Below are positions 1 through 41,513 of a stretch of 52,324 nucleotides of DNA, piece by piece (the stretch's first letter is position 1; each line of letters begins with the position of its first letter). Origin of the DNA: an uncultured bacterium (GTDB lineage Bacteria; B130-G9); the NCBI GenBank assembly GCA_964480475.1, contig CAYZPW010000009.1, positions 1-52,324 on the forward strand. Reading direction: 5' to 3'. The position numbers and the translations under genes are program-made. The notes below the pieces were generated by a model. The model saw only the letters and a program-made list of their open reading frames with translations, did no database searches and had not been told where the DNA came from.

Positions 1-63
1 AGCGCCTCGGCAGGACGTTGCTTGCGACCAACCACCTCGACTGGACGTCCGGGCGGGTCTGAG
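1..63 (+). pseudogene. Fragment of a DDE transposase gene (C-terminal region), cut short where a solo copy of the 27-bp palindromic repeat begins; about 90% identical to the inverted copy at 13955-14200
   Basis: In-frame translation reads ...ERLGRTLLATNHLDWTSGRV and then a TGA that lies inside the repeat sequence. The same stretch in the second copy (minus strand, 14052-14110) reads ERLARTLLVTNHLDWTSGRVIEAYRG..., which carries an IS4/IS701-like C-terminal motif. The fragment runs off the window start. Confidence 0.45.
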
Positions 64-76
64 ACACCGCCCCTAC
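50..76. repeat. Solo copy of the 27-bp GC-rich palindromic repeat (CGGGCGGGTCTGAGACACCGCCCCTAC), the same sequence that forms the terminal inverted repeats at 1205-1310
   Basis: Direct sequence match to 1284-1310 and to the reverse complement of 1205-1231 and 26275-26301. One CA/AC transposition at the gagacAccg position. Confidence 0.6.
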
Positions 77-1204: not shown

Positions 1205-1310
1205 GTAGGGGCGTGGTCTCGGACCCGCCCGTTCTGATTGATTGCCGTTGCGAGAATGCCTTATCCGACAGGATTGATGTAAGCGGGCGGGTCTGAGACC
1301 ACGCCCCTAC
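1205..1310. mobile_element. 106-bp MITE-like element with 27-bp terminal inverted repeats (GTAGGGGCGTGGTCTCgGACCCGCCCG ... CGGGCGGGTCTGAGACCACGCCCCTAC) flanking 52 bp of non-coding sequence
   Basis: The two ends are reverse complements of each other apart from one mismatch. The same 27-mer recurs as solo copies at 50-76 and 26275-26301. The element sits immediately upstream of the 135-1190 gene. Confidence 0.65.
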
Positions 1311-5786: not shown

Positions 5787-6599
5787 TTACGCTCTCTTCG
5801 TGCCGCAGAGAACCATCCGAAAGCTATCTGAATTGAGCGGCTTGCCGGTAGAGTGGTCGGCGAAGGCCGAGGTAACGTCAAGCCCGAAACGAACAAGGAT
5901 GCCGCTCATTTCCTCGCGAGTGTACAGCCGGACCCAACCGTGCGAACGATGGAACCGCCGTTCCATCCAGCGAAAGGACCAAACCTCTGTGGTCAAGCGA
6001 GATTCACGCCGGTCATAGCGGAAACGATAGACTCCGGCGGCGCCGGTGTCGAGCTGAAACTTCGTGCAAGGACACTTCTTGATCGCCCATCCCGCGTTTA
6101 TGACGCCAATCACGAACTTGCCGTCGTGGGCTAGCACTCTGGCCAGCTCCGCCAGCATACGTTCATTAGCCGCGTCCGTCTCCTGATAGCCGATACCACC
6201 CTCCGCCATAGCTATCACGCACTCAAAACTGTCGTCAGCAAAGGGCAAGGCAGCCACATCGGCTGTCAGGAAATCGGTCTTGATGTCCCAGGACTCTGCC
6301 TGCCTTTTGGCGAGGCGCGGCAGAATGCGCGAAACGTCAACACCCGCAACCACGAAGCCTTCTTTGGACAACAGCAGGCTATGGCGGCCAAAGCCGCACC
6401 CAGCATCCAGCAGCCGTCTTCCGTGTCCTGGCCCAAGGACATCAACTAAGAAATCAACTTCGCGTCTGGTTATCTTGGGCTTGGCCCACGGAGCGTAAAC
6501 GACCCCTTCGCCTAGCCTGTCCAGCTCCTTCTTCCACCAACCGGGTTCAATCCCCTTTGGTAAGCCCATTTCAGAGTAACGTAACCGAGGCTTCTCCAC
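5787..6599 (-). CDS. Class I SAM-dependent methyltransferase
   Basis: Motif I reads LLDAGCGFGRHS, and the protein has the overall Rossmann methyltransferase layout. Confidence 0.8.
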   Translation of the reverse strand: MEKPRLRYSEMGLPKGIEPGWWKKELDRLGEGVVYAPWAKPKITRREVDFLVDVLGPGHGRRLLDAGCGFGRHSLLLSKEGFVVAGVDVSRILPRLAKRQAESWDIKTDFLTADVAALPFADDSFECVIAMAEGGIGYQETDAANERMLAELARVLAHDGKFVIGVINAGWAIKKCPCTKFQLDTGAAGVYRFRYDRRESRLTTEVWSFRWMERRFHRSHGWVRLYTREEMSGILVRFGLDVTSAFADHSTGKPLNSDSFRMVLCGTKRA

Positions 6600-7239: not shown

Positions 7240-8781
7240 TTATCCGTAACTGTGTAGGCCGCTCAGTATGTAATTGACGCCTATGAACGTGAATAATACC
7301 GCAATGAACCCAACAATTGAAACAAGCACGAGTGTCGCGCGGTGCTTCTTTGCCGGAAGGCAAAGCCTCAAGTGCAAGAATATGCCATAGATGCACCAAG
7401 TGATGAGGCTCCAGCTCTCCTTGGGGTCCCAGCCCCAGTATCTTCCCCAGGCCTTGTCAGCCCATATAGCGCCCGTGATTATGCCCAGGCCAAGCAGGAA
7501 GAACCCGAGCCGCACGAGCGTGAGATTTGTCTCGTAGAGCCTGGAACGGAGCTCCGACTGCCGGTCTTCCTGGAGAACCAAAAACGCGATGCAGACGCCA
7601 AATGCAAGATACAAGACGCCATAACTGATCACCGCCGCGCCCACGTGATACGTCATCCAATCGCTCTTGAGGACCGGCGGCAGCTGCGAGACCGTCTCGG
7701 ACAGCGGTGATAGAAAGGTCGCGGCCAGTCCGACGCCGCACAGCGTGTCCCCGATAAGGCCGAAGGTCGGCTCCTTGAAGCGGACTTTCAGGACAAGAGC
7801 CGTGATTGCCGCCGCCGCCATCATCACCAATATGTATTCATACGTATTGCTCGCCATCGCCTTATTCGCGATGGTCCCTCTTAATGCAAGGGCAACGACG
7901 TGAAATGCCGCGACCGGATACAGCGCTGCGCTCGCTGCACGCACCAGTTTAGCGCCGCTCGTGACGCAGCCAAATGAGTGGATGAGCGCAATTGCCAGAT
8001 ACATGACAGCTAGCAGCCAGAACGGGCCGACGCGGTTGTAGTGGAACTCGAGCACGAGGCGCCATCGCGGCGGAAAGAGACCTTCATCGGTTGAGGATAC
8101 AATAGCAGCCAGCCGCGACGCGGCTTCATTGTATTGCCCTACGTCCAGCGTCTCAAGGGAGCTTGTCAGCGTCTGGTAGGCATCGCGCGCGCCGTCGATC
8201 TCAAGCGACGCCTCCTCATCCAGCGCTATCCAACCCTGGGGGCCGCCTCGCGGAAAGAGCCTCAGCTCGCTGGCCAGCGCGCGGAACTGCATCAGCCTCT
8301 TCTTCAGTCTTCGCCAGGCCCTTGACTTCTTCAGGTTGGTGGAAGCGGCCATCGCAGAACCAGCACGAGCATGGAGCCTCTCCCGCAGCTGCTTAGGCGA
8401 GATGTGCGTCGCGCTGATGGCTCCCTCGGCGCCAAAGAGCTCAGCGCTGAGCCCAGACTCCAGCTTGATTATTGGCTTCTCGGACCACCTGTCGGGGCAA
8501 AGCGCCCAGCTCAACACGACGAGCGTCGGCTTAAGTCCCGCGTAGCTGCGCTCGCCGAAGATGTCAAACAGCCGCTCGCGGGCAAACGAATCGAGGGCCT
8601 TGAGCCTACCCCCATTCTGAACCGCCAGCTTGCCAAGTATCTCCGTCGATGCGCGAACGTTGCAGTCGAAACGCTCAACCGTAGCCTCCGCCTCGCCGCT
8701 CGAAGCAAACCTGGCCCAAAATAGCGCGATTATCAGCCCCAGGAGCCCTACTACCCACACCCAACAGATGCGTCTGCTCAT
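7240..8781 (-). CDS. ccsA: System II cytochrome c biogenesis protein CcsA/ResC, with a roughly 200-aa N-terminal extension
   Basis: Carries the tryptophan-rich WWD heme-handling motif WGRYWGWDPKESWSL. Multiple transmembrane segments. A 4-bp overlap links it to the upstream ccsB. Confidence 0.85.
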   Translation of the reverse strand: MSRRICWVWVVGLLGLIIALFWARFASSGEAEATVERFDCNVRASTEILGKLAVQNGGRLKALDSFARERLFDIFGERSYAGLKPTLVVLSWALCPDRWSEKPIIKLESGLSAELFGAEGAISATHISPKQLRERLHARAGSAMAASTNLKKSRAWRRLKKRLMQFRALASELRLFPRGGPQGWIALDEEASLEIDGARDAYQTLTSSLETLDVGQYNEAASRLAAIVSSTDEGLFPPRWRLVLEFHYNRVGPFWLLAVMYLAIALIHSFGCVTSGAKLVRAASAALYPVAAFHVVALALRGTIANKAMASNTYEYILVMMAAAAITALVLKVRFKEPTFGLIGDTLCGVGLAATFLSPLSETVSQLPPVLKSDWMTYHVGAAVISYGVLYLAFGVCIAFLVLQEDRQSELRSRLYETNLTLVRLGFFLLGLGIITGAIWADKAWGRYWGWDPKESWSLITWCIYGIFLHLRLCLPAKKHRATLVLVSIVGFIAVLFTFIGVNYILSGLHSYG

Positions 8782-21772: not shown

Positions 21773-22855
21773 TTAAACCAGTGCCTTGGCCTGCTCGATC
21801 CATTTCTCCGCGTCGGTCGCTTTGGCCATTTTGCCCAGGGCTTCCTCCAATGCCGCAGGCGTGCTCGCTGCCAGTTGTTGAAGCGTAAAAATACCGGCTG
21901 CGTTCAAACGACTTTGACGGCCGGGGCCGATGCCGCTGATTTGGGCAAGGTCGTCAGGCGCGCCTTCTCTTGCTTTCTCAACCGGCGCTTCTTCCTTCTT
22001 GCGCGGCGGTGCCGATGTTCTCGCCCAGGCACGATGCGCGTTTTCGATGTCGGTCGCAAATGTTACCCTCAGATCCCAGACCCGGTGTCTCAGGTCGCTC
22101 ACGGACTTTTTGACTTCGGACAGAAAAGTCTTCCGGTCAATTCGGCTTCCCCTCGCCATGCCGAGCCGGTCATCGCGAAAACTCGATTCCAGTTGCACGA
22201 CACTTTCCTTTAAGGCCGATACAAAACTGCCCAGGTTGTCCTTCATCAGGCGGGCCATTTCAGCGTGATCGGTCCGGAAACCGGTCCTAATGTTCCCAGC
22301 TTCACGCGACAACTCGCAGACGTCTTTTTTCAACCCGTTCATGAATGTCCTGAGATCGGCCTCGGTCTTCTCAGCGGTTTCAGCTCTATGGTTGAAAAAG
22401 CCTTCCACCATTCGGGTTACATCGACGGAAAGACCGGATGAAAAAGTCTGCAGTTCATCTGTCAATCGGCGCGCCATCGCCGCACGCTCGTCCCGAAAAC
22501 CTTCCTGCAAATCAAAGACCTCATCTGCCATCGCATTGACGTATTCTCTGATATCCGACGCGAATCCATCGAGCTCCGCTCGCAGCGTTTGCGCCATTTC
22601 AAACCTGTCGTTGCGGACTGTTTGGGTCATTCGCGATACGTCTGTTCTGAGATCCGAAACGAAAGCCCCGAGGTTATCGTTCATCCCGCGGGCCATCGCA
22701 CCGTGCTGGTCACAAAAACGCGAACGCATAGCTTCCACATCGTTCTGCAATGCGGCCGCATCCTGCTGCAACTGCCCCAGAAAAGCGAACCGGCTTTGCC
22801 TTAAGGCACCAATGTCATCACGCAGGCGGGTCATATCGTCAGTTAGGCTGCCCAT
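21773..22855 (-). CDS. Repeat-rich amphipathic protein, a candidate GvpC-like shell-associated protein, with a C-terminal helix-hairpin-helix motif
   Basis: At least five degenerate repeats of roughly 33-40 aa anchored on an MA..L...L..F.S.L...V..M pattern. The C-terminus reads ISGIGPGRQSRLNAAGIFTLQQLA, an HhH motif. Its position between gvpA and gvpN corresponds to gvpC in cyanobacterial clusters. Confidence 0.4.
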   Translation of the reverse strand: MGSLTDDMTRLRDDIGALRQSRFAFLGQLQQDAAALQNDVEAMRSRFCDQHGAMARGMNDNLGAFVSDLRTDVSRMTQTVRNDRFEMAQTLRAELDGFASDIREYVNAMADEVFDLQEGFRDERAAMARRLTDELQTFSSGLSVDVTRMVEGFFNHRAETAEKTEADLRTFMNGLKKDVCELSREAGNIRTGFRTDHAEMARLMKDNLGSFVSALKESVVQLESSFRDDRLGMARGSRIDRKTFLSEVKKSVSDLRHRVWDLRVTFATDIENAHRAWARTSAPPRKKEEAPVEKAREGAPDDLAQISGIGPGRQSRLNAAGIFTLQQLAASTPAALEEALGKMAKATDAEKWIEQAKALV

Positions 22856-22955
22856 GATGATTATCCTCTCTCCTATCGAAGACCTTCCGGGCGGGTTCTC
22901 CCATCCCGGCGGACTTCAATTATCCAATTTGTAGGTCTATCCACAATTATCTTTG

Positions 22956-22984
22956 CGTGAGAGGCCGCAGACCGGCCTCTCACG
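22956..22984 (-). terminator. 12-bp perfect stem-loop (CGTGAGAGGCCG-cagac-CGGCCTCTCACG) lying 15 nt downstream of the gvpA stop; a candidate attenuator or partial terminator
   Basis: Read directly from the sequence. No clean U-tract follows it on the transcript. Confidence 0.35.
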
Positions 22985-22998
22985 AAAGACTTCTCGCC

Positions 22999-23226
22999 TT
23001 ACGCCGGAGCAGCCGCTGCCGCGGTGAGGCCAATGGCCTCGGCGTACTTCAGATAAGTCTCGACTGAGGCGATCACAACTCTTGCCTCGATGGAGAGGAG
23101 CTCGATCCCAACCAGGGAGACCTTGGCCCAGGCATCGATCACGATCCCCTTATCCAGGATCCGGTCGACGACTTCGGCAAGGCTCGAGGAATCGGTTGAC
23201 TTCTGAATCTTCGCCCTTTCCGCCAT
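22999..23226 (-). CDS. gvpA: Major gas vesicle structural protein GvpA
   Basis: [54 protein letters not shown] is a near-canonical GvpA sequence. A strong ribosome-binding site (AAAGGAGGAcaatcATG) precedes the start. Confidence 0.95.
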
Positions 23227-23309
23227 GATTGTCCTCCTTTGCTGTTAAAAGTGACGTGGTGTAAAAACTCCGTCCATATCTAACCTTAGGCATGCCGCTA
23301 TACTTTATA

Positions 23310-23324
23310 GCAATATATGTGCCA
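23310..23324 (-). promoter_or_regulatory. Sigma-54 (-24/-12) promoter reading TGGCAC-ATATA-TTGC on the minus strand, about 85 bp upstream of gvpA
   Basis: The plus strand reads GCAAtatatGTGCCA. Its reverse complement matches the TGGCAC-N5-TTGCW consensus exactly. An NtrC-family sigma-54 activator is encoded in the same locus. Confidence 0.6.
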
Positions 23325-23520
23325 AACGCATGTGCGGACCGACAAATACACTATAGGCATGCCGGGCAATCGGGGTAGTTCCTCTGCTGCCGGGGCTTTA
23401 CGGGGCTGCACCCCAGAGCGCCTGAGACCCAAAACAAAGAAACCATACACGTCAGGAGCGAGGCGCAGAAGTCAATCGTCCTGAATTAGGGAATCGATAC
23501 TATGGCGGATACACCATATT

Positions 23521-23937
23521 TCAGCGGAACGAATTCCCCATATCGAGGGAGGAGGCCGGTAGTTGGGAGACGCTTCTGATGATCCTCAGAATCTCATCAT
23601 TTTTGAAGGGCTTGGACACGAAATCATCGATGCGCTTTTCCTGCAGCGCCCTCTCCACCATCGGGTCATTTTGATAAAAATAGCCGGAAACGACCACGAT
23701 CCGAATTGAGGGGTCCAGTCTCCGGATCTTTTTTGCCAATTCCAAGCCGTCGATGTCCGGAAGTTTGGCATCCAGAAAAGCCATTTGATAAGAACCTCTG
23801 CGCAGCAGTCCAAGAGCCTTCCCGCCGCTTAATGCGCTCCGGGCAGTCATTCCCACGCTTTCGATGATATGCTCGAGAGCCCAGCACATATCCGGTTCAT
23901 CATCTACGACGAGAAACATCGGAGTTTTCGCTGTCAT
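23521..23937 (-). CDS. Single-domain response regulator (CheY-like receiver)
   Basis: MFLVVDDEPDMCWAL...FLDAKLPDIDGLELAKKIR...VVVSGY. The start is taken at the internal Met (MTAKTPMF). The 5' extension in the listed ORF looks non-coding. Confidence 0.75.
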   Translation of the reverse strand: MTAKTPMFLVVDDEPDMCWALEHIIESVGMTARSALSGGKALGLLRRGSYQMAFLDAKLPDIDGLELAKKIRRLDPSIRIVVVSGYFYQNDPMVERALQEKRIDDFVSKPFKNDEILRIIRSVSQLPASSLDMGNSFR

Positions 23938-24004
23938 ATATGCTCGTAAACAGTTCGGTTCCCCCTTCTGCCATGCAGCGCCACGTACTTCGGTATTTAT
24001 CGAA

Positions 24005-25534
24005 TTACAGCATCGGCAGCATGATGGTAAAACTGGTTCCCCGGCCCTCAATGCTCTCCACCTCGATGGTACCGGAATGCTGCTCGATGATGGCGTAACA
24101 GATGGAAAGGCCCAATCCGACACCTTCTCCCACCGGTGAAGTCGTGAAAAAAGGGTCAAATATCTTATCGATGTTCTCTTCTACGATACCGTGGCCCGTG
24201 TCGGCCACTCGAATCAACGCGCTGCATTTCGTTTTCTGGACGGATACCGTTAGGTGCCCGCCGTCCGGCATCACTTTGAGCCCGTTCAGAAAGAGGTTGA
24301 TGAAAACCTGTTGCAGCAGACCGGCACTACCGTTGATGAACACCGGCTGCGCGGGGAAATCTGATTTGAGCTTGATTTTTTGGATGTTGATCTGGTTGGA
24401 AATGAGCGCAATGGTCTCTCTGATGATATCAAGAAGATTGACCTCCTCCCTGTTCGATCCCTCTGGAGGGCGCGCGAATTTTAGCAGATTCTCGATAACG
24501 ACGGATGCTCTCTCAATCCCCTCGTGGAGCTTCCTGGCGCATTCGATGCGGAAATCCGGGGAGATGTCATCCGCCAAAAGGAATTGGGCGGCTGAAGAAC
24601 AGATCGCCAGCGGGTTTCGAATCTCATGGGCGATCCCACCGGCCATCACGCCCAGCGCAGCAAATTTTTGCGACTGGCGAAGCTGCATCTCCATTTTGCG
24701 GCGCTCGGTATGATCTCTGCCCACGACCACGAATCCGGCTGTCTCCAACTGCTGGTCTTTCATCGGCGAACAAACCCAGGAAACATGGGTATCGAGCCCC
24801 TTTTTCGTGACGAGGTCCCACTCCCCGGTGACCGAATCTCTCCGAGTTCTCATCTCGGAAAATATCTTCCTCACGTTTTCCTGGTGATCCTTGGCGCATA
24901 ACCTGTAGAAAACCTGGTTTTTTACCTCAGTGAAACTGTATCCGGAGATTCTCTCCGCTGCCGGATTCCAAGAGAGTATCCTTCCGTCGGTGTCGGTGGA
25001 CAACATAATGTCACTGGCGCTGTCGAAGATACTCGCCAGATGGCGTTGAACGCGTTGAATCTCATCGCTCAATTGGATCTGTTCGGTTACATCATCCATT
25101 AAGAGCATTACGTTCTCAACGCTCCGCTGCCACTCAAACGGGACAATGCGATAATAGTAAGTCCGCATCGAAACGCCCGGAGATCGAAAGAACATCCGCT
25201 GCCCTTTGGTGGGCTGGCTCGAACGGAAGACCTGGCGAATCTGGCCGATGATATCCATCTTTTCGATAATCACGGCGGGAAAGATCTTCTGAAGCGGGAA
25301 ACCGATGGTGTCGGATGCCGACCGCCGGCTCTTCTTCAGAAAGTTCCGATTGGCAAGCACGACACGCATGTTCTGATCGATCATCAGAACCGAAGACGGT
25401 ATCGTATCCAGCAGCATGGCATACAGCTTCTGATGCCAGTCGGAGGCGCCGTCGAGTACAATTCCGGTCTTAGTTGAATCCGGCAAAGAGGCCTTTCGCA
25501 TTTCCGACGGATGGCCGTTGGCTTGATCTGTCAT
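24005..25534 (-). CDS. Sensor histidine kinase with PAS domains, a HisKA domain and a HATPase_c domain
   Basis: H-box HEIRNPLA. HATPase_c G-boxes (…DTGHGI…, …GLGLSI…). PAS-like repeats upstream of these. The start is proposed at MTDQANG so that it overlaps the upstream gene by 4 bp. Confidence 0.8.
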   Translation of the reverse strand: MTDQANGHPSEMRKASLPDSTKTGIVLDGASDWHQKLYAMLLDTIPSSVLMIDQNMRVVLANRNFLKKSRRSASDTIGFPLQKIFPAVIIEKMDIIGQIRQVFRSSQPTKGQRMFFRSPGVSMRTYYYRIVPFEWQRSVENVMLLMDDVTEQIQLSDEIQRVQRHLASIFDSASDIMLSTDTDGRILSWNPAAERISGYSFTEVKNQVFYRLCAKDHQENVRKIFSEMRTRRDSVTGEWDLVTKKGLDTHVSWVCSPMKDQQLETAGFVVVGRDHTERRKMEMQLRQSQKFAALGVMAGGIAHEIRNPLAICSSAAQFLLADDISPDFRIECARKLHEGIERASVVIENLLKFARPPEGSNREEVNLLDIIRETIALISNQINIQKIKLKSDFPAQPVFINGSAGLLQQVFINLFLNGLKVMPDGGHLTVSVQKTKCSALIRVADTGHGIVEENIDKIFDPFFTTSPVGEGVGLGLSICYAIIEQHSGTIEVESIEGRGTSFTIMLPML

Positions 25535-26373
25535 GTGATCCAGGCTACCTCGTCCGGTCGCTCGGGTGTAACGAAGTTGTACGGTGGCCACGGGCCGCTC
25601 AAAAGCAGTTTATGGGGCCCGCGCTTGCTGACACGCCGGAACGCTTGCCGAAATGATTCAACCGACGCTCGGCGGACGAGAAAATAGAGGGAGAGGACCC
25701 GATTGCTAAATGGGGACACCGTCTGACGTGTCGGACCTGTCAGACCCGTCGGAGCCAATTCCGATTTGAACCGGACAAAGAGCCCAGAAAACGCAGATCG
25801 AATCTGTGCGATTATGTGCTCAATCTCTTTTAGATTACGGTCCTCGCGGGAATAATGGGCTTTGCGTGCCGACAAGTACTGCTTGCCGGACCGCGGGAAT
25901 TGAGTATTCGGACCAGTCGGACGAGTCGGACGAGTCCGACGAGTCGGACCAGGAGGGCATTGAGCTTCTGACATCATGACCCGGATTCCCATCTCCACGC
26001 TGCCCTTGAGCTCGCTTAACAGGGACAAATAGTAGTGGGCACGCTGCCCCAAATACCGCCCGACCTCTTCCTTGTCCGGGAACAGACAGCCGTAGCGCAT
26101 CGGGATGACGGTGCGGTCGTGGTTAAAGCGTTCGATGATCCTTTGGTAAGCCTGAATGCGCGTGATATCCGGTGTCAGATTCGGATGGACAGATGGAGAG
26201 ACCGAGGCGCCGAGACCATTGTGCGATACAACCATAATCGGTTGGCCGTCAACCCCTGTGAGGCGGACGGTTGTGTAGGGGCGTGGTCTCAGACCCGCCC
26301 GCTGTGCCCCTGCAAGGCGGACGGCTGGCGACTTTTCCTCGTTGGCAAATATGCAATAAAGGAGGTATTTCAT
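25531..26373 (-). CDS. GvpF/L-family paralog that carries an in-frame insertion of the 27-bp palindromic repeat plus two 9-bp microsatellite tracts
   Basis: KYLLYCIF at the N-terminus and LSGPWPPYNFV at the C-terminus. Residues AGAQRAGLRPRPYTTVRL are encoded by the solo repeat at 26275-26301 together with an 18-bp direct duplication. PTRRTRPTRPTGP and PTGLTGPTRQT are encoded by GTCGGACNN 9-mers. Confidence 0.7.
   Translation of the reverse strand: MKYLLYCIFANEEKSPAVRLAGAQRAGLRPRPYTTVRLTGVDGQPIMVVSHNGLGASVSPSVHPNLTPDITRIQAYQRIIERFNHDRTVIPMRYGCLFPDKEEVGRYLGQRAHYYLSLLSELKGSVEMGIRVMMSEAQCPPGPTRRTRPTRPTGPNTQFPRSGKQYLSARKAHYSREDRNLKEIEHIIAQIRSAFSGLFVRFKSELAPTGLTGPTRQTVSPFSNRVLSLYFLVRRASVESFRQAFRRVSKRGPHKLLLSGPWPPYNFVTPERPDEVAWIT
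26275..26301. repeat. Solo copy of the 27-bp GC-rich palindromic repeat, flanked by a roughly 20-bp imperfect direct duplication (cccctgtgaggcggacggttgt / cccctgcaaggcggacggctgg), lying inside the coding sequence
   Basis: GTAGGGGCGTGGTCTCAGACCCGCCCG is identical to the reverse complement of 1284-1310. Confidence 0.6.
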
Positions 26374-26398
26374 CTGCCTGGTAAGCCTTATTTACCCT

Positions 26399-27271
26399 TC
26401 ACACCATTTCCAAGGTCGGGGAGAAGCTGTAGGGGGGCCACGGCCCGGAGAGCTCAAAGTGAAGTCCGTGCTCCGCCTGCGCGGCCTTTATTCGGTTGAG
26501 GCACGCCGCGAAGACATCCTGGGAGTCTCTGGAAAGCAGAAACGCCCAATTCAGAACCATGTCCACATCCAAGCCGGTGGCATCACGGGAAAGCACTTTG
26601 CGTTCGCAGAAACGCGCCGCATACTGCCCGAGGTCTTCCCAAACTGCGGTCAAGATCGCTTTCAATCTCTGGTTCAATTGCCGCTCAACTTCGGCCGCCA
26701 TCTGCCTCTGCATGAAATACTGCTTTCCGGGTGAGAAAGATGCGAGACGCTCCTTCTCACCGGCCATCAGGTCCGAATTCAGCGACCTGTGCGCTTGCGC
26801 CCTGTCCAAGAATCCTTTCAGCGCCCATTCCGCTTTGTTGTCCACCTCGCCTAAGAAACGCGAAATGGTGCCATGGTGACGGACACATAATCCCACCATC
26901 CGCTGGGATGAGGCAAAAATCGTCCCGAAGCCTGCTGGCAGCACCGGTGAGTGCCGCATCACAGCCTCCACCACTTCCTGGTGACGACAGGCCCGGGGGC
27001 CCACCCAGGCCAGGTCCTTGAGGTCCGTTTCGGCCGACGGCCCGCTGAAATCCGCAACCATCACCTTGCTGGCCACGGCCACGATGTCCTTGTACGTCCA
27101 TTGTGAGACGGGATAGCGGGCATCCATGCCGGCGACCTTCAGCAACGGCACTCTCGCGGCCTGCGCAAAACCATAAAGATAGACGCCTTGCGCTTCGCGC
27201 GGTTGTGCTGTCGAACCAGTCAGAGAGGTCGGACACGTCAGACTGGTCGGACATCTATTATCAACCATCAC
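26399..27271 (-). CDS. gvpL: GvpL/GvpF-family gas vesicle protein with an N-terminal PTSLT repeat
   Basis: GVYLYGFA near the N-terminus and ELSGPWPPYSF near the C-terminus. The N-terminus reads CPTSLTCPTSLTGST and is encoded by 9-bp GTCGGAC-type tandem repeats. Confidence 0.7.
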   Translation of the reverse strand: MMVDNRCPTSLTCPTSLTGSTAQPREAQGVYLYGFAQAARVPLLKVAGMDARYPVSQWTYKDIVAVASKVMVADFSGPSAETDLKDLAWVGPRACRHQEVVEAVMRHSPVLPAGFGTIFASSQRMVGLCVRHHGTISRFLGEVDNKAEWALKGFLDRAQAHRSLNSDLMAGEKERLASFSPGKQYFMQRQMAAEVERQLNQRLKAILTAVWEDLGQYAARFCERKVLSRDATGLDVDMVLNWAFLLSRDSQDVFAACLNRIKAAQAEHGLHFELSGPWPPYSFSPTLEMV

Positions 27272-29379
27272 ACCGCCTCCAGGGCGCTAAAAAGATCGTC
27301 TGACGTGAGGCACAGATCGGGAACGTCGTCGGCCCCCGCGTCCCGTCCGGCCTGCACCGCGCGTCGGAGCGCAGAAAGCGCTGCTTTGTGACAGATGCCG
27401 GCAATTTCGGCCCCGCTGAGACCCTCGGTCTTTGCCGCCAGATCGTCTGGGCGAATATCCGCTGCGAGTGGTTTGTTGCGCAGATGAATCGCAAAAATCT
27501 TCTCCCGGCCATTTTTATCCGGCATGGGGATCTCGATAATCTCGTCAAAACGTCCGGGCCTCAGCACCGCCGGGTCAAGCATATCGGCCCGGCTTGTCGC
27601 GCCCAGGACCAGGACCCCCTTGAGTTCTTCGATCCCGTCAAGTTCGGTCAGGATTTGACTGAGCACCCGTTCCGACACGTGCGCATCCGATGCGCCGCCT
27701 CGAATCGGAACCAGGGCATCGATCTCATCAAAGAAAATGATACAAGGGGCAGCCTGCCTAGCCTTTTGAAAGACCTCCCGGACGGCCCTTTCGGATTCGC
27801 CCACATATTTAGAGAGGAGTGCCGGCCCCTTGACGGAAATAAAGTTGACGTGAGTTTCATTAGCGATGGCCTTGGCCATTAGCGTCTTCCCGCAGCCGGG
27901 CGAACCGGACAGGAGAATCCCCTTGGGCGGCTTGATCCCGGCCTGATCAAAGAGACGGGGAAACTTTAGGGGCCATTCCACCGCTTCCACCAGACTCTCC
28001 TTAACCGCGTCCAGGCCGCCGACGTCCTCCCAGCGAACATTCGGTACCTCGACGAAGACCTCTCGAATGGCCGATGGCTCCACCTCCCGCAGGGCGGCGC
28101 GGTAATCGTCCATGTGGACTTCCAGGGCCGCGAGCTGCTCATAGGGGATGGATGTCAGCCCAAAATCGATATCCGGCATGATCCGTCGCAAACAGAGCAT
28201 GGCGGCCTCGCGGCAGAGGGCTTCAAGATCGGCGCCGACGAAACCATGCGTAATTTCGGCTAAGTGCGCCATGTCCACGTCCGGGGCCAGCGGCATGCCG
28301 CGGCTGTGGATGTCCAGTATCTCCAATCGGCCGAGGCGGTCCGGAATCGGAATGCGGATTTCCCGGTCAAAGCGGCCGGGGCGCCGCAAGGCCGGGTCCA
28401 GGGCATTGGGGATATTGGTGGCCGCAATGACGATGACATTTTGACGCTTGGTAAGCCCGTCCATGAGGGCCAAAAGCTGGGCGACCACCCGCTTCTCAAC
28501 GTCCCCCACAACTTTTTCCCTGGGCGGGGCAATGGCGTCGATTTCGTCCAGAAAGACGATGCTGGGCCCCTTGCGGCTGGCCTCATCAAAGATCTTACGC
28601 AGATGCGCCTCGCTTTCTCCATAGAACTTGTGGATAACTTCCGGGCCGCTGACGGAAAAAAACTGGGCCTCGGTTTCGTGGGCGATAGCCCGGGCAATGA
28701 GGGTTTTGCCGCATCCCGGAGGACCGTGCAGCAGCACCCCCTTGGGGGCTTCGATCCCGAGGCGGCTGAAAACCTCCGGATACCGCAGCGGCAGCTCGAT
28801 CATCTCGCGTATCCGCAAAAGCTGAGGCTTAAGCCCGCCGATGTCCTCGTAGGCTACCCGGCCCGCGGAGTCCGCTTCTTTCGTCTTGACGATGGCAAGT
28901 CGGGTGGTGGGATTGATGAGAACAGGGCCTTCAGGGACCGTATGCTGCACTTTGAAGTCGGCAGACCGGCTGCCAAATAGATTGGCCCGGATCCGGTCGC
29001 CCACCAAAACCGGCAAGCCGTCCAGAAGACTTCCGATGTACTTCAGATCACGCTCGCTCGGGGTGATGCTTGTCGGGGCTAATGATACTCTCTCCGCCGG
29101 GCTACAGGCCGTTTTGCGGATGTTCACGAACTCATCGAGGCCGGCGCCGACGTTCTCTCTGGTGAGGCCATCAAGCTGCACCCGGGACTGGCCGCGAATC
29201 TCCTTGTAAGCTGGCATGGCCTTACAGACGGTTCTGCGTTTGGCCTCGATCTCTACGATGTCACCGATAGCCAAATCCAGTCGCTTCATGTCTTCCGGGC
29301 CCATTCGGGCAAAGCATCTTCCAACGTCCTTGCTGAGGGCTTCCGTAACTTTCAGTTTAAGTCCTTCTTTCTCTTTCAC
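27268..29379 (-). CDS. Cdc48/VCP/VAT-like double-ring AAA+ ATPase (N-domain, D1 and D2)
   Basis: Two complete AAA modules (GPPGCGKTLIARAIA...DEIDAI and GSPGCGKTLMAKAIA...DEIDAL). The N-terminal domain resembles a double-psi barrel. Confidence 0.85.
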   Translation of the reverse strand: MKEKEGLKLKVTEALSKDVGRCFARMGPEDMKRLDLAIGDIVEIEAKRRTVCKAMPAYKEIRGQSRVQLDGLTRENVGAGLDEFVNIRKTACSPAERVSLAPTSITPSERDLKYIGSLLDGLPVLVGDRIRANLFGSRSADFKVQHTVPEGPVLINPTTRLAIVKTKEADSAGRVAYEDIGGLKPQLLRIREMIELPLRYPEVFSRLGIEAPKGVLLHGPPGCGKTLIARAIAHETEAQFFSVSGPEVIHKFYGESEAHLRKIFDEASRKGPSIVFLDEIDAIAPPREKVVGDVEKRVVAQLLALMDGLTKRQNVIVIAATNIPNALDPALRRPGRFDREIRIPIPDRLGRLEILDIHSRGMPLAPDVDMAHLAEITHGFVGADLEALCREAAMLCLRRIMPDIDFGLTSIPYEQLAALEVHMDDYRAALREVEPSAIREVFVEVPNVRWEDVGGLDAVKESLVEAVEWPLKFPRLFDQAGIKPPKGILLSGSPGCGKTLMAKAIANETHVNFISVKGPALLSKYVGESERAVREVFQKARQAAPCIIFFDEIDALVPIRGGASDAHVSERVLSQILTELDGIEELKGVLVLGATSRADMLDPAVLRPGRFDEIIEIPMPDKNGREKIFAIHLRNKPLAADIRPDDLAAKTEGLSGAEIAGICHKAALSALRRAVQAGRDAGADDVPDLCLTSDDLFSALEAV

Positions 29380-29459
29380 GCATCGCTTCCTTTCATTACC
29401 CGCCCGAAATACGCTCGGCCCTTGGCGGCCGTGGGACCGTCCTTTGATACCCTAAACGG

Positions 29460-29960
29460 CTACAGGGCGCACTTTATCTCCAAAATGCCGTTATTGCAGG
29501 ACATGTGCATCTTCTCTTTGGGATAACTTCTAGGCATCAGGACTTCTTTGCGGTATTTCTTCTCCCCGTGTTCAGCATATAGCGTCAGCAGATCGTCTTT
29601 GACGTCGATTTGGACATCATCTTCACTGATGCCCGGCATCTCGACCACAACTAGTGTATGGTCCTTCTCCTCGAAGACATCGGCAATGGGCTCGCGAATC
29701 TCCTGCACCACAGCTTCACCGGACTCTTCATCGCGGCGGATGTTTCCGAAAGGCTCAATCTTGACTTCATCCCCTCCCAAACCCACTTTGACGGAGAAAC
29801 CGTATATCCCCTTCAGGTCCTTTCCCTTTCGTTTGAAATCGATCTCTCCGGTTCTAGACAGCCGCTCCCCCTTTTCCGCGAGCTCGCCAAGCTTATCTAC
29901 CAGGTCCGCCAAACCTCCTAGAATCCCTCCGAAGCCGCCTCCGCTCTTCTTGTCACTCAT
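29460..29960 (-). CDS. Hsp20/alpha-crystallin family small heat-shock protein
   Basis: Gly-rich N-terminus. C-terminal alpha-crystallin domain (...VVVEMPGISEDDVQIDVKDDLLTL...ILEI). It overlaps the upstream activator gene by 8 bp. Confidence 0.7.
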   Translation of the reverse strand: MSDKKSGGGFGGILGGLADLVDKLGELAEKGERLSRTGEIDFKRKGKDLKGIYGFSVKVGLGGDEVKIEPFGNIRRDEESGEAVVQEIREPIADVFEEKDHTLVVVEMPGISEDDVQIDVKDDLLTLYAEHGEKKYRKEVLMPRSYPKEKMHMSCNNGILEIKCAL

Positions 29961-31368
29961 GGTTCCCTCCGCTATTCATTTGAATACCCAGTTTCTTGAC
30001 CTTAGTATGCATCGTTTTGTAGTCTATTCCGAGAATCCGCGCTGCTTTGGCCTTGTTCCCGCCTGTGGACTGTAACGTCCGGGTAAGAACTTCTCTTTCC
30101 ACTACCGCCGTGCTCTCACGCACGATGGTCTTCAAGGAGGCCTTCCCCAATAGTCCTCTCTTCATTTCAGGCCCCACGTCCCACGACACCGATGATCGCT
30201 TCCGGATATCCAGATGACCTTTGGTGATAATCTCGTCGGCTAGAAGAACCGCGCGGCGGACGGTGGACCGGAACTCACGCACATTCCCGGGCCATGGGTA
30301 ATCCAGCAGCGTTTCCAGGGCCTCTTCAGAGAACCCGTTCACGTTCTTGTTCAATTCTGCGTTGGCGATGTCCAGAAAACGCTTGGCCAGATAAGGTATA
30401 TCATCTCTTCGCTCCCGCAGGGGCGGTACTCTTATGGTAAACTCCTTCAGCCGGAAAAAGAGATCGCTGCGAAAAGCGCCTGCCTCGGCGAGGCTGTTAA
30501 GGTCCCGGTTGGAGGCGGTCAGCAGACGAACGTCTATCTTGGCAGGTTTGTTGCTGCCCACCGGCAAGACCTCTTTCTCCTGAATAACCCGTAGAAGTTT
30601 GGCTTGCGAAGATAGTGGCAGGTTGGTGACCTCATCTAACAACAGCGTCCCACCTTGGGCGGATACGAGTTTGCCAACTTTTCTCTGTCCCGCCCCGGTA
30701 AACGCGCCTTTCTCGTGACCAAACAGCTCGCTTTCCAGTAGTGCCTCCGGAATGGCCCCGCAGTCCAATGGAACAAAAGGCCCTTGGGAACGCAAACTGG
30801 CCTTGTGTATGGCCCGGGCAACAACCTCTTTTCCAGACCCTGTCTCCCCTTGGATCACCACAGTAAAATCGGACCGGGCGACTCGCTCGACCATCGCGAT
30901 AAGGTTGCCGACCGACTCGCTGGGTCCCATTGCCTCTCTCAGCGGGCCGTCCTTTCTGATCTGGCTGGTAAGGTTCTTCAGTCTCCGTTTGAGTTCTCTT
31001 TCTGAAAGCGCTCCGTGAACTGCACGAATCACATCGTCATGCTCAAAAGGCTTGGTGAGATAATCGTACGCACCGGCCTTTATCGCTTCAACCGCGCCGT
31101 GGATTTCGCCAAACGCCGTGATAATGACCACGGGAAGGTCGGGGTCCAGTTCTTTGGCGTGCACCAACACCTCTGAGCCATCCATGTTAGGCATTCTCAT
31201 GTCAAGTAACATGAGATCGGGCGAGGCGGAACGGATGGACTCCAGCGCCGGCTCGCCATCATTCGCCATAATGGCTTTGAATCCCTCGCGTTCTACGAGC
31301 GTTGCAAGCATCCGGCAGATATCCCTGTCGTCATCCACAATCAGAACTCGGACCTCGAGTTTCTCCAT
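29953..31368 (-). CDS. NtrC-family sigma-54-dependent transcriptional activator (receiver, AAA+ sigma-54 interaction domain and Fis-type HTH)
   Basis: Receiver motifs (VLIVDDD…LLDMRMPNMDG), Walker A GETGSGKE, a GAFTGA loop, and a C-terminal HTH (AARILGIDYKTMHTKVKKLGI). The start is taken at MEKLEV. Confidence 0.85.
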   Translation of the reverse strand: MEKLEVRVLIVDDDRDICRMLATLVEREGFKAIMANDGEPALESIRSASPDLMLLDMRMPNMDGSEVLVHAKELDPDLPVVIITAFGEIHGAVEAIKAGAYDYLTKPFEHDDVIRAVHGALSERELKRRLKNLTSQIRKDGPLREAMGPSESVGNLIAMVERVARSDFTVVIQGETGSGKEVVARAIHKASLRSQGPFVPLDCGAIPEALLESELFGHEKGAFTGAGQRKVGKLVSAQGGTLLLDEVTNLPLSSQAKLLRVIQEKEVLPVGSNKPAKIDVRLLTASNRDLNSLAEAGAFRSDLFFRLKEFTIRVPPLRERRDDIPYLAKRFLDIANAELNKNVNGFSEEALETLLDYPWPGNVREFRSTVRRAVLLADEIITKGHLDIRKRSSVSWDVGPEMKRGLLGKASLKTIVRESTAVVEREVLTRTLQSTGGNKAKAARILGIDYKTMHTKVKKLGIQMNSGGNHE

Positions 31369-31391
31369 GGCTCTTGCTCCGTTCAATCCCC

Positions 31392-32030
31392 TCACCGCCC
31401 CGCAGAGCCGGCGGGTTTCTCGATCAGATGCGCCAGATGAATATCTCCGTTGAGGAACGGCTCGGGTGAGTGAAGCATCCCCAAAAAAAGGACCCCAGTC
31501 TCCCCCGCACATAGGCTGTGATTGATGCGCTGCGCGATATAACGATCACGCGCTTTGAGTAACGATTCGGCCAATGTCTTTTGGTGTGTTTTCATCTTGG
31601 CCGTTCTGGACGCATTGCCGGTATCCAGGATGCATTTGGACAATTCGTATTCTCTGACCAGAAGTTCAGCCGATTCGGTTCCCATGAGGGCAGCGCCCTT
31701 TTCTATCAAACGCAGGAGAAGCTGATGATTGCGGCTGCCCGAAGTCGCCAGTTCCTGAACGATCTCCCGCTCACGCCCGCAAACAGGCAGACTATCTTGA
31801 TAGAGGCGGACTTTAGCGTAAACCAGGTCCAGCCGGTTGATAGCGGTTTCTATGTCCGCCCATATCTGATCTATGGCAGCCACCTTGCGCTTCAGAAGCG
31901 TTTCTCCCATCCTGTAAAGATGAGCCCGGCGAATCGATTTGCCCAGAAGGCCCATATCGGCCTGTGTGTGCACAATGGGCACGTAGGCCAAGGTCCTTTC
32001 GAATCCGCTAGCGTCTGCTTTCCCAATCAT
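31392..32030 (-). CDS. Hypothetical protein
   Basis: 212-aa ORF with protein-like composition but no motif I recognise. Confidence 0.3.
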   Translation of the reverse strand: MIGKADASGFERTLAYVPIVHTQADMGLLGKSIRRAHLYRMGETLLKRKVAAIDQIWADIETAINRLDLVYAKVRLYQDSLPVCGREREIVQELATSGSRNHQLLLRLIEKGAALMGTESAELLVREYELSKCILDTGNASRTAKMKTHQKTLAESLLKARDRYIAQRINHSLCAGETGVLFLGMLHSPEPFLNGDIHLAHLIEKPAGSAGR

Positions 32031-33877: not shown

Positions 33878-34003
33878 CTTGAATTCACACGCTTAATGAG
33901 GGAGAAAACATACAGATTAAAGAGAAGTCAAAATAACAGCGAACAAGGCACTGTGTTGGACGGCGATTCCGCCGTGCTTCATTGCGGCCGGTCAGCTTGG
34001 TAG

Positions 34004-34103
34004 TTCTGCACAAAAGACTATGAATCAGATTAATAGATATGGTCTAATTGGTCGTTCCGCACGAAGGCTATGAATCATACTAATAGACATGGTCTAAGTA
34101 GGC
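34004..34103. repeat. Imperfect tandem duplication of about 50 bp (two units each containing CTATGAATCAnAnTAATAGAnATGGTCTAA) spanning the start codon of the HNH-domain gene
   Basis: Direct comparison of 34004-34053 with 34054-34103. Confidence 0.5.
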
Positions 34104-36723: not shown

Positions 36724-37542
36724 ATGGCTAGATGCGTCATCTGCGAACAGCGAAAAGGCAAGAGGCATTGCCCGCTCAAGAACGCAATGATCTGCTCACA
36801 GTGCTGCGGGTTGCTGCAAACTGAGGGCAACTGCCCGGGCGATTGCCCGTTCCTGAAGGAGAGCAAGCTTTTCGCGTCGGAGAAGCAGGAAGAGAGGGAA
36901 AACCAGCTCGGCGAGCGGTTCAAGCGTGATTTCGACGCCGAGAATGAGGAGGTCATGCAGACCTTCAACGCTGTCGCCACACCATTGAATGACTTGTTCG
37001 TCGCAGCTGCGGAGGAGGACGAATATCTCGTGGACAAGGACCTGGTCGAGGCGCTGGATGACTTGATAAAGGACACGAAGGAGGGCGTTGGCCAGGTTGT
37101 TAGTCCTGAGGATGTGAAGCTTAACCGAGCGGGCAATCTCGTGCCGCGGATGAAGGAGGCGCTTGAATCGTTCGATGCTGAGCCGCCGGTGCCGGACTAC
37201 TTGATTGTGCCGTGCCTGGAGATACTCAGGGGCCTTGTATCGCTTTCAACGAAGGAGGACGAGCCAAAAGCGTACCTTGACCAGCTGCTCAAGCAGAAGG
37301 AGGAAGAAGGGGCCGAGGAGGAAGAGGCAGTTGCGCCGGCCGGCGAGCCAGTGTTGGTTGACATAGACGCAGCCCAGGCCGAACTACCTCTAGAGGGTCC
37401 GGAGGAGCCCGAGCAACCCTCGGTTGCGGACCTGTTTGAGGAGGCGCCGGAGACGCCAACCGCAGGTGACCTGCTTGAGGAGGCGCCAACCACAGCTGAC
37501 CTGTTTGAGGTGGCGCCGGACGAATCAGACGAGAAGGAATAG
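36724..37542 (+). CDS. Cys-rich (probable zinc-finger) protein with an acidic C-terminus bearing DLFEEAP repeats
   Basis: MARCVICEQRKGKRHCPLKNAMICSQCCGLLQTEGNCPGDCPF at the N-terminus. The C-terminus reads ...DLFEEAPETPTAGDLLEEAPTTADLFEVAP.... Confidence 0.4.
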   Translation: MARCVICEQRKGKRHCPLKNAMICSQCCGLLQTEGNCPGDCPFLKESKLFASEKQEERENQLGERFKRDFDAENEEVMQTFNAVATPLNDLFVAAAEEDEYLVDKDLVEALDDLIKDTKEGVGQVVSPEDVKLNRAGNLVPRMKEALESFDAEPPVPDYLIVPCLEILRGLVSLSTKEDEPKAYLDQLLKQKEEEGAEEEEAVAPAGEPVLVDIDAAQAELPLEGPEEPEQPSVADLFEEAPETPTAGDLLEEAPTTADLFEVAPDESDEKE

Positions 37543-41046: not shown

Positions 41047-41177
41047 CCACGTGGGGCGGGCGTTCTAGCCTGCCGGTGTAGGGCGGGCTTTCCAGCCTGC
41101 CGGTGTAAGGCGGGCTTTCTAGCCTGCCGGTGTAAGGCGGGCTTTCTAGCCTGCCGGTGTAGGGTGGGCTTTCTAGC
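41047..41177. repeat. Non-coding tandem repeat of 27 bp in about 4.8 copies (unit TGCCGGTGTAAGGCGGGCTTTCTAGCC)
   Basis: Read directly from the sequence. The 12-mer TTCTAGCCTGCC also occurs at 106-117 next to the solo palindromic repeat. Confidence 0.8.
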
Positions 41178-41320
41178 CTGGCAAACATGTGCCTCGGGGA
41201 TTTGAGGAGCGCGCACAGTGATCGGTAGCTGGATTAGTCTCCGCCCGCTGGAAAACCGGAGGCGCCGGGCACCGAGATTAGACAGACCGGCGGCTTGAGC
41301 TGCCGCGAAGAACTACAGAT

Positions 41321-41405
41321 GCCGAGATGGTGGAACTTGGTAGACACGCTGCCTTGAGGGGGCAGTGGGCGAGAGCCTGTGGGGGTTCGAGTCCCCCTCT
41401 CGGCA
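41321..41405 (+). tRNA. tRNA-Leu (anticodon GAG) with a long variable arm
   Basis: GCCGAGA acceptor stem. The anticodon stem-loop reads CTGCC-TTGAGGG-GGCAG. A long extra arm is present. The T-arm is GGGGGTTCGAGTCCCCC. Confidence 0.85.
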
Positions 41406-41513
41406 TTTCCTTTATAGGCGGCTTTCCGGCGATCTCACCCCTCAACATCTGTCAAAATCCCCTCTCTTGTCTAATAGGCTTTTTTACGGTCTTTTCATTT
41501 CTTGTGTGCACAG

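Follow-up and report, generated by a model that had tools for sequence, protein, structure and literature searches.

Repetitive DNA of two kinds, a single GTAG-type REP unit and 9-bp tracts, within predicted loops and linkers of two gas-vesicle GvpL/GvpF genes

Gas-vesicle genes occupy part of a 52,324-nt stretch of DNA from an uncultured bacterium (GenBank assembly GCA_964480475.1, contig CAYZPW010000009.1, positions 1 to 52,324; hereafter the window), and here we analyse two adjacent genes of that cluster in which repetitive DNA of two kinds lies inside the reading frame. Gene 1 carries a single copy of a repetitive extragenic palindromic (REP) element of the GTAG type within an in-frame insertion, together with two tracts of 9-bp repeats, and gene 2 carries a third such tract in its N-terminal tail (Table 1). 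Pfam profile searches matched both products to PF06386, gene 1 over residues 5-268 (E 1.2e-43, 150.4 bits) and gene 2 over residues 29-284 (E 6.1e-50, 171 bits), far above the curated cut-off of 23.6 bits; with gvpA in the same cluster, these matches confirm the two predicted open reading frames (ORFs) as intact GvpL/GvpF genes within a gas-vesicle cluster, in keeping with the original prediction, made from the letters of the window, which had called them GvpF/L paralogs. The closest named relative of the gene 1 protein is P0123, from a metagenome-assembled genome (MAG) labelled Candidatus Coatesbacteria, which equals P0006 plus one N-terminal residue, P0006 being ~60% identical to the gene 1 protein. 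Gene 2 likely starts at the ATG at 27268, and in the sequence TGATG this codon shares bases with the stop of the AAA gene upstream.

Table 1. Positions of the genes and repeat features in the window
Feature	Coordinates	Strand	Remarks
GvpL/GvpF gene 1	25531..26373	(-)	280 aa; bears the REP insert and two 9-bp tracts
GvpL/GvpF gene 2	26399..27271	(-)	290 aa counted from GTG 27271; N-terminal-tail tract
In-frame 54-bp insertion relative to empty-site orthologues	26270..26323	(-)	DNA alignment against L005, L007, L009, L010
Direct repeat copy 1	26253..26273		native target, encodes ..VRLTG before beta2
Direct repeat copy 2	26307..26327		duplicated target; 21 nt, 18/21 identical to copy 1; 54 bp apart
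GTAG-type REP, single	26275..26301	(+)	GTAG head and imperfect palindrome; exact 27-mer GTAGGGGCGTGGTCTCAGACCCGCCCG
Further exact REP copy	50-76	(-)	
Further exact REP copy	1205-1231	(+)	
Further exact REP copy	1284-1310	(-)	
Linker-1 tract	25907..25949	(-)	5 units GTCSGAC+2, read as GPTRRTRPTRPTGP
Linker-2 tract	25721..25754	(-)	4 units, read as PTGLTGPTRQT; model coil, pLDDT ~54
Gene 2 N-terminal-tail tract	27210..27252	(-)	5 units, read as CPTSLTCPTSLTGST
GvpA (PF00741)	22999-23226		same cluster as both GvpL/GvpF genes
CDC48-like AAA ATPase (double AAA)	27268-29379		adjoins GvpL/GvpF gene 2

Compared with four orthologues that have an empty site (metagenome loci L005, L007, L009 and L010), in which the sequence reads ..GCCAGC joined directly to CGTCCGCCTTGCGGGGATTGAC.., gene 1 is longer by exactly 54 bp, and the in-frame 54-bp insertion that had been proposed is thus real. 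Its parts, in plus-strand order, are GTTGT, the REP, CTGTGC and a 16-nt target copy; in the coding orientation the order is target copy (16 nt in the window, 22 nt in loci L001 and L004, which also carry the insertion), GCACAG, REP, ACAAC and native target. The boundaries of the insertion are ambiguous because the target is duplicated. Its length is 54 bp in the window, where it adds 18 residues (AGAQRAGLRPRPYTTVRL) without a stop, and 60 bp in L001 and L004, where it adds 20 residues. The 27-bp palindromic repeat copy reported inside gene 1 was recovered exactly, and so was the flanking duplication, although the 18 bp first given for it are the core of a longer, imperfect repeat (Table 1). 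On the mRNA strand the REP encodes RAGLRPRPY; of the six possible frames, this is one of the four without a stop, and the predicted peptide that covers the translated REP is AGAQRAGLRPRPYTTVR.

Upstream of the REP is the conserved beta1 motif YCIF, which does not vary in 17 sequences, and the PF06386 match continues across the insertion, so the REP is genuinely inside the coding sequence. An AlphaFold model of the gene 1 protein, built on an alignment of 119 sequences (mean predicted local distance difference test score, pLDDT, 83; predicted template modelling score, pTM, 0.77), had the two-domain GvpF fold, resembling the GvpF crystal structures 6L5D and 4QSG (Foldseek E 4e-9; template modelling score, TM, 0.75-0.77, normalised by target), a relation found by fold search, as a PDB sequence search with the same protein returned no match. 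The REP insert occupies residues 21-38 of the model, between strands 2-10 and 47-51, as a low-confidence loop (pLDDT ~49-60) between beta1 and beta2, which agrees with its earlier placement near a conserved N-terminal strand and answers the suggestion that modelling should show whether it sits in a loop. Linker 1 (residues 135-162) and linker 2 (207-224) are modelled as coil with pLDDT 53-60, and the gene 2 tract lies, by orthologue alignment, in the N-terminal tail ahead of that protein's strand beta1; the claim that the 9-bp tracts encode linkers therefore stands, with the tail as a third setting. Prediction thus places each of the four segments derived from repeats in loop or disordered sequence. 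With the insertion site in the beta1-beta2 loop, the model suggests that the fold would be kept and a disordered loop of 18-20 residues gained.

GTAG-type REPs are defined by a GTAG tetranucleotide at one terminus and, next to it, an imperfect palindrome of 20-40 bp that can fold into a stem-loop (PMC3733652), and the gvpF element combines that head and palindrome with many, mostly intergenic copies and inverted dimers. The 27-mer GTAGGGGCGTGGTCTCAGACCCGCCCG is present four times in the window, against 0 expected from shuffles. Judged from the sequence and the ORF translations, the three copies other than that in gvpF lie outside recognisable coding sequence, and two of them (1205-1231 and 1284-1310) form an inverted doublet with a 52-nt spacer, like a REPIN (REP doublet). 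No inverted partner was found within 26180-26400, so the gvpF copy is truly single. A scan of species-representative genomes, a set that does not include the window's own contig, revealed 50 or more copies in those parts of MAG CBDVDH01 that were sampled, among them about ten doublets with ~80 bp spacing and conserved flanks; the REP family thus connects the window with this MAG, also an uncultured bacterium. One type of flank, ..TCATAAGTCGTTGCGGTTGT immediately before GTAG, is common to CBDVDH01 copies and the window copy at 50-76, and its last 7 nt are also present at the gvpF copy, so that ..CGGTTGT before GTAG is common to the gvpF REP and the CBDVDH01 copies.

Several further observations concern this REP family and its relatives. 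The ORF at ~130-1190 on the minus strand, which is flanked by REPs, has the look of a secreted metallophosphoesterase-type protein and is not obviously a transposase, on a reading of the translation by eye, no systematic scan for REP-associated tyrosine transposases (RAYTs) having been made. An identical 26-nt core was seen, in few copies each, in MAGs of different phylum labels (L011, L013, L028, L038, L039, L047, L054, L061, L064 and others; SAR202 Chloroflexi, Chloroflexaceae, Anaerolineae, Myxococcota and Proteobacteria, the last from cattle colon), with three copies at 52-bp spacing in L047; such a distribution may reflect horizontal spread, convergence or binning contamination. Separately, at three loci of other MAGs (L041 ~7740-7845, L056 ~6220-6322 and L063, minus strand), the REP lies in frame in type A sorting domains of the type IX secretion system (T9SS; TIGR04183), paired head-to-head with a second GTAG REP, GTAGGGGAGGGTTTGAAACCCTCCC. 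This pair adds ~25 residues (..PVGEGLKPSRS..QTGGSETTPLRN..) in a reading frame unlike that in gvpF, which shows that the family decorates further proteins as well. A different GTAG-like palindromic repeat of 27 bp (GGGCGGGCTTTCTAGCCTGCCGGTGTA) is also present in the window, as 4.7 head-to-tail copies at 41054-41180, directly after an ORF and ~140 nt upstream of a tRNA-Leu(GAG) gene (41320-41406), and fragments of this repeat flank REP copies both at 100-120 of the window and in CBDVDH01 (L022).

Among 119 aligned homologues, the insert is carried only by P0001 and P0002, to which the partial protein P0009 is added; the beta1-beta2 segment has 32 aa with the insert versus a median of 14 aa in the same alignment. 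Nearly all of the 119 lack the insert residues, which speaks against these being native to the family, the finding named beforehand as one that would overturn the insertion. At the DNA level, the carriers are the window, L001 (P0002) and L004 (P0009), and the site is empty in L005, L007, L009 and L010. The backbone of the N-domain separates the alleles into clade A (window, L001, L007 and L009) and clade B (L004, L005 and L010), with L004 and L005 93% identical over the N-domain DNA. Since carriers occur in both clades and their nearest relatives have empty sites, the distribution is mosaic, and the expectation that aligned orthologues would show a lineage-specific insert was not borne out.

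The repeat types of the linkers add to this mosaic. Linker 1 is of the repeat type in the window, L005 and L010 and of a conserved non-repeat ERKRE type in L001, L004, L007 and L009; linker 2 is of the repeat type in the window and L005, the tract being absent or of another kind in L001, L007, L009 and L010; and the N-terminal tract of gene 2 is found in the window and L007/L008 and is lacking from L001 and L006. The types of linker 1 and linker 2 are not tied to the backbone clade, and several pairs of features occur in all four combinations, a pattern that requires either recombination or gains and losses that recurred. The REP core and 18 nt of the right duplicate are common to L001 and L004, and because the right duplicate of L004 equals that of L001, unlike that of its close relative L005, the insert region appears to have been transferred by recombination. 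L004 has a clade-B N-domain yet a clade-A type linker 1 and an L001-identical right target copy. Taken at the level of the alleles, these patterns point clearly to diverged gvpF alleles having recombined in these metagenomes of sediment or groundwater type.

The presence of the insert in two backbone clades would also be expected if the three alleles arose by independent site-specific insertions into one gvpF hotspot, not from one old event, as would the allele-specific base that the duplicate copies share (CGTCCG in the window, CGTCCA in L001) and the identity of the REP core with genomic master copies. We consider such repeated insertion very improbable: all three carriers have the insert at the same position and in the same orientation, with the same extra nucleotides (GCACAG..ACAAC), the left duplicate of L004 has diverged from its right copy at 6/22 positions, so that this insertion is not recent although its core is intact, and the right duplicate shared by L004 and L001 points to recombination. 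It is scarcely credible that the in-gene REP is an assembly or binning artefact, such as a chimeric join at the repeat. The assemblies are indeed metagenomic and repeats are classic sites of misjoining; however, independent assemblies yielded this in-frame structure for the window, for P0121 (JGI), for three ENA samples (L001-L003) and for L004, with both flanks collinear gvpF sequence and the frame kept.

Conservation was computed on a three-way alignment of the carriers over its first 503 columns. The 38-bp core (GCACAG, REP and ACAAC) has one variable site, compared with a mean of 10.4 and a minimum of 3 for other 38-bp windows, and none of its 12 third-codon positions varies, versus 29% outside (conservative binomial P ~0.002). 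The most variable stretch is the left duplicate, with 13 of 22 columns variable, a 6-nt gap included. This decay of the left duplicate indicates that the insertion is not young, though the palindrome was kept or refreshed. The conservation of the core may have any of three causes, namely selection acting on the hairpin, gene conversion by REP copies elsewhere in the genome, or a recent spread through recombination.

The first of these causes amounts to an intragenic REP kept as a nucleic-acid element, with the encoded peptide a by-product; it might act as an mRNA hairpin ~70-100 nt into gene 1 that sets a decay boundary or a translation rate between the upstream genes (AAA and gvpF/L 2) and gvpF/L 1, or as a DNA site for a REP-binding protein. 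Such a role would account for a core that is the most conserved stretch in the three carriers, third positions included, next to a decayed duplicate. It would also suit the fold of GTAG plus GGGCGTGGTCTCAGACCCGCCC, with a 9-bp stem, one bulge and a 3-nt loop, which as an RNA hairpin is stable (-15.5 kcal/mol, z -3.35), and REPs are generally thought to be transcribed RNA elements downstream of ORFs (PMC3733652). Still, the close relatives L005, L007, L009 and L010 do without the REP, the hairpin would be melted by translating ribosomes, and the 81-nt context of the gvpF REP is no more structured than shuffles (z +0.35). Recombinational spread explains the conservation equally well, given what L001 and L004 share, and so does conversion from genomic copies. 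An Rfam search of 25000-27800 gave a chance-level match only, with no family assigned, and a promoter and terminator scan found nothing tied to the REP or the 9-bp tracts. Hence, we regard a retained nucleic-acid function for the REP as unlikely.

The three 9-bp tracts are likewise real, the coordinates first given for them being approximate but correct. Tandem Repeats Finder reported 25908-25949 (4.7 copies, 90% matches), 25721-25750 (3.3 copies) and 27219-27253 (period 18), with two further reports elsewhere in the window, at 33997-34097 (50-bp unit, 2 copies) and 37449-37517 (30-bp unit, 2.3 copies). The tracts are short and imperfect arrays, at 3.3-4.7 copies and 80-90% matches, and not long near-perfect ones. 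A two-unit pattern, GTCNGACNNGTCNGAC, allowing at most one mismatch, has 10 matches in the window, all within genes 1 and 2, against 0.12 expected, and in ~400 kb of fetched loci it was confined to gvpF/L genes bar one match in an unrelated MAG. On a broader scale, three tandem GTCNGACNN units were found in metagenome contigs at no fewer than 120 loci, across all GC contents and contexts (xSD, xPT and collagen-like GPT), so the motif class is generic, and none of the 120 sampled loci was gvpF; as the search pattern fixes GTC and GAC, these matches are uninformative on constraint.

Linker 1 of the window has 29 aa, with a family median of 28 (range 16-79), and linker 2 has 23 aa, with a median of 17 (range 7-68); the window linker-1 tract stands in place of a non-repeat linker one residue shorter. 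Linker lengths are therefore ordinary for the family, and the tracts, which had been read as in-frame insertions along with the REP, are not net insertions. Unit number differs between orthologues: for linker 1 it is 5 in the window, 3 in L005, 2 in L010 and 0 in the others; for linker 2, 4 in the window, 3 in L005 and 0 in the others; and for the gene 2 tail, 5 or 0. In a protein comparison, P0121, the one 99%-identical strain variant found, which differs by 3 substitutions, carries an identical insert and tracts of unchanged length, and clusters of close orthologues at 90% identity, a very thin sampling, contained no tract-length variants. The length polymorphism that had been suggested as a check across strains thus exists between diverged orthologues but not in this strain variant.

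These results bear on the proposal that the tracts are contingency-type repeats, in which ongoing slippage yields linker-length variants within populations. Units that are multiples of three, the variation in unit number between orthologues and the concentration of matches in these two genes are all consistent with it. Short imperfect tracts give low slippage rates, however, and the tracts have only 4-5 units; together with the unchanged tracts of P0121, the uniform lengths within the close clusters and the ordinary linker lengths, this makes contingency-type variation quite unlikely. Slippage as a current source of structural variability in the assembly factor, as first proposed, is accordingly not supported, and the data do not show tracts that are hypervariable today.

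The reading frame of the tracts differs between alleles. GTCCGAC units of L005 and L010, on the same strand, are read as SDV where the window reads PTR, and what is common to these alleles is the DNA motif and not the PT peptide. Loss of 23 nt between two TCSGAA repeats in a linker like that of L005 would give both the window junction and the frame change. An alternative-frame ORF at 26757-27254 on the minus strand begins MSDQSDVSDLSD.., which is the gene 2 tract read in the SD frame, and tract-less gene 2 orthologues (L001 and L006) begin MSDV or MTDV; these starts hint that the gene 2 tract may have arisen near an ancestral start, shifting the start upstream to the TGATG overlap. A second REP-derived segment, suspected in linker 2 of P0007, an orthologue at greater distance (TGLRPPASD), was rejected, the DNA there having neither a REP nor a GTCNGAC tract.

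A wider version of the nucleic-acid idea would take the REP hairpin and the quasi-palindromic GTCSGAC tracts together as selected signals, for RNA processing or stability or for protein binding, that tune the stoichiometry of the assembly factors, the peptides being passengers. If true, this would explain the invariance of synonymous sites in the core, the heptamer at three non-homologous positions and the differing frames at once; we give it little credence.

On balance, we think it rather probable that the two kinds of repetitive DNA in the gvpF/L genes decorate a gas-vesicle assembly protein and are tolerated there. A single GTAG-type REP unit, from a family that appears abundant in the lineage, usually intergenic and often in inverted doublets, would have inserted into gene 1 along with a 16-22-nt target duplication. 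The added length is a multiple of three in either form, 60 nt or, in the window, 54 nt, presumably after loss of 6 nt. The insertion would be old and would now be one module in a mosaic of gvpF alleles segregating among related populations, spread or lost via homologous recombination and/or recombination between the flanking direct repeats. The GTCSGAC+2 tracts would have grown and shrunk by replication slippage over evolutionary time, in linkers and a tail that vary freely, and their reading frame would have switched at least once through compensating indels.

Several points weigh against this account of tolerated decoration. The near-perfect conservation of the REP core, synonymous positions included, fits pure neutrality poorly. 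The two-unit tracts cluster at three non-homologous positions of two gvpF/L genes, which independent slippage does not explain. To our knowledge, a target duplication of 16-22 nt is not expected from the transposition chemistry attributed to RAYTs. The allele comparison covers seven close alleles aligned at the DNA level, one of them partial, and the contigs were fetched by exact protein identity, which hides length variants. Finally, that the insert is tolerated presupposes a functional gene 1 product, which the intact frame and conservation suggest.

Beyond the two GvpL/GvpF genes, GvpA and the AAA ATPase, the cluster also holds a GvpH/Hsp20-like gene, a sigma-54 response regulator, a PAS histidine kinase and a single-domain receiver protein, and gene order is unchanged across all orthologous metagenome contigs fetched. 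Spanning 21773-31512, the cluster brings its own regulators, and an apolipoprotein-like/HhH protein stands beside gvpA.

For gas-vesicle engineering, GvpF/L offers sites that accept 10-20 extra residues in its beta1-beta2 loop, in both inter-domain linkers and in its N-terminal tail. For mobile-DNA biology, the locus offers a well-documented selfish palindromic repeat in an intact gene, with filled and empty sites, a modelled loop position and a repeat that has outlasted its flanking duplication, and it raises two testable points, namely the target duplication of 16-22 nt and a core that is more strongly conserved than its host gene.

Intragenic REPs of the GTAG and CGTC types were described earlier in many species (Di Nocera, De Gregorio and Rocco 2013, PMC3733652), so the phenomenon itself is already known and the gvpF case adds to a known kind. 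Like those elements, it belongs to a family of short GTAG-headed imperfect palindromes that are genome-wide, mostly intergenic and often inverted dimers, and that occasionally lie wholly within the ORF of a known protein, where the short peptide is thought to form a loop or linker. It differs in its host, GvpL/GvpF, whereas replication and repair genes are highlighted in PMC3733652, and in being single, having a 16-22-nt target duplication, being better conserved than its host gene and being mosaic among alleles.

In-frame Rickettsia palindromic elements (RPEs) have also been described in Rickettsia genes (PMC3733652, its refs 13, 14). Here too a palindromic repeat lies in frame and leaves the ORF intact, with an RPE peptide believed to be surface-exposed; we compare the two only in how they work, and RPEs probably form an unrelated sequence family, in an obligate intracellular bacterium. 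RPE-1 elements, at ~100-150 bp, are also far above the 27 bp of the gvpF REP. REP doublets have been described as mobile units (Bertels and Rainey 2011, PMC3116915), and the inverted doublets ~80 bp apart with conserved flanks in CBDVDH01, like that at 1205-1310 of the window, resemble REPIN/RAYT systems. The gvpF copy differs from these in being a singlet within a gene. We know of no target duplication as a feature of the REPIN/RAYT mechanism.

The 9-bp tracts are comparable to the simple-sequence repeats of PT- or SD-rich linkers, in which units are multiples of three, low-complexity peptides rich in P, T, S and D lie between domains and copy number is variable among relatives; they differ in that the heptamer GTCSGAC occurs at three non-homologous sites of two adjacent paralogues and in two frames across alleles. 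As far as we have checked, what apparently goes beyond the published picture is the long target duplication, a core conserved beyond its host gene, and frame-switching heptamer tracts in two adjacent paralogues.

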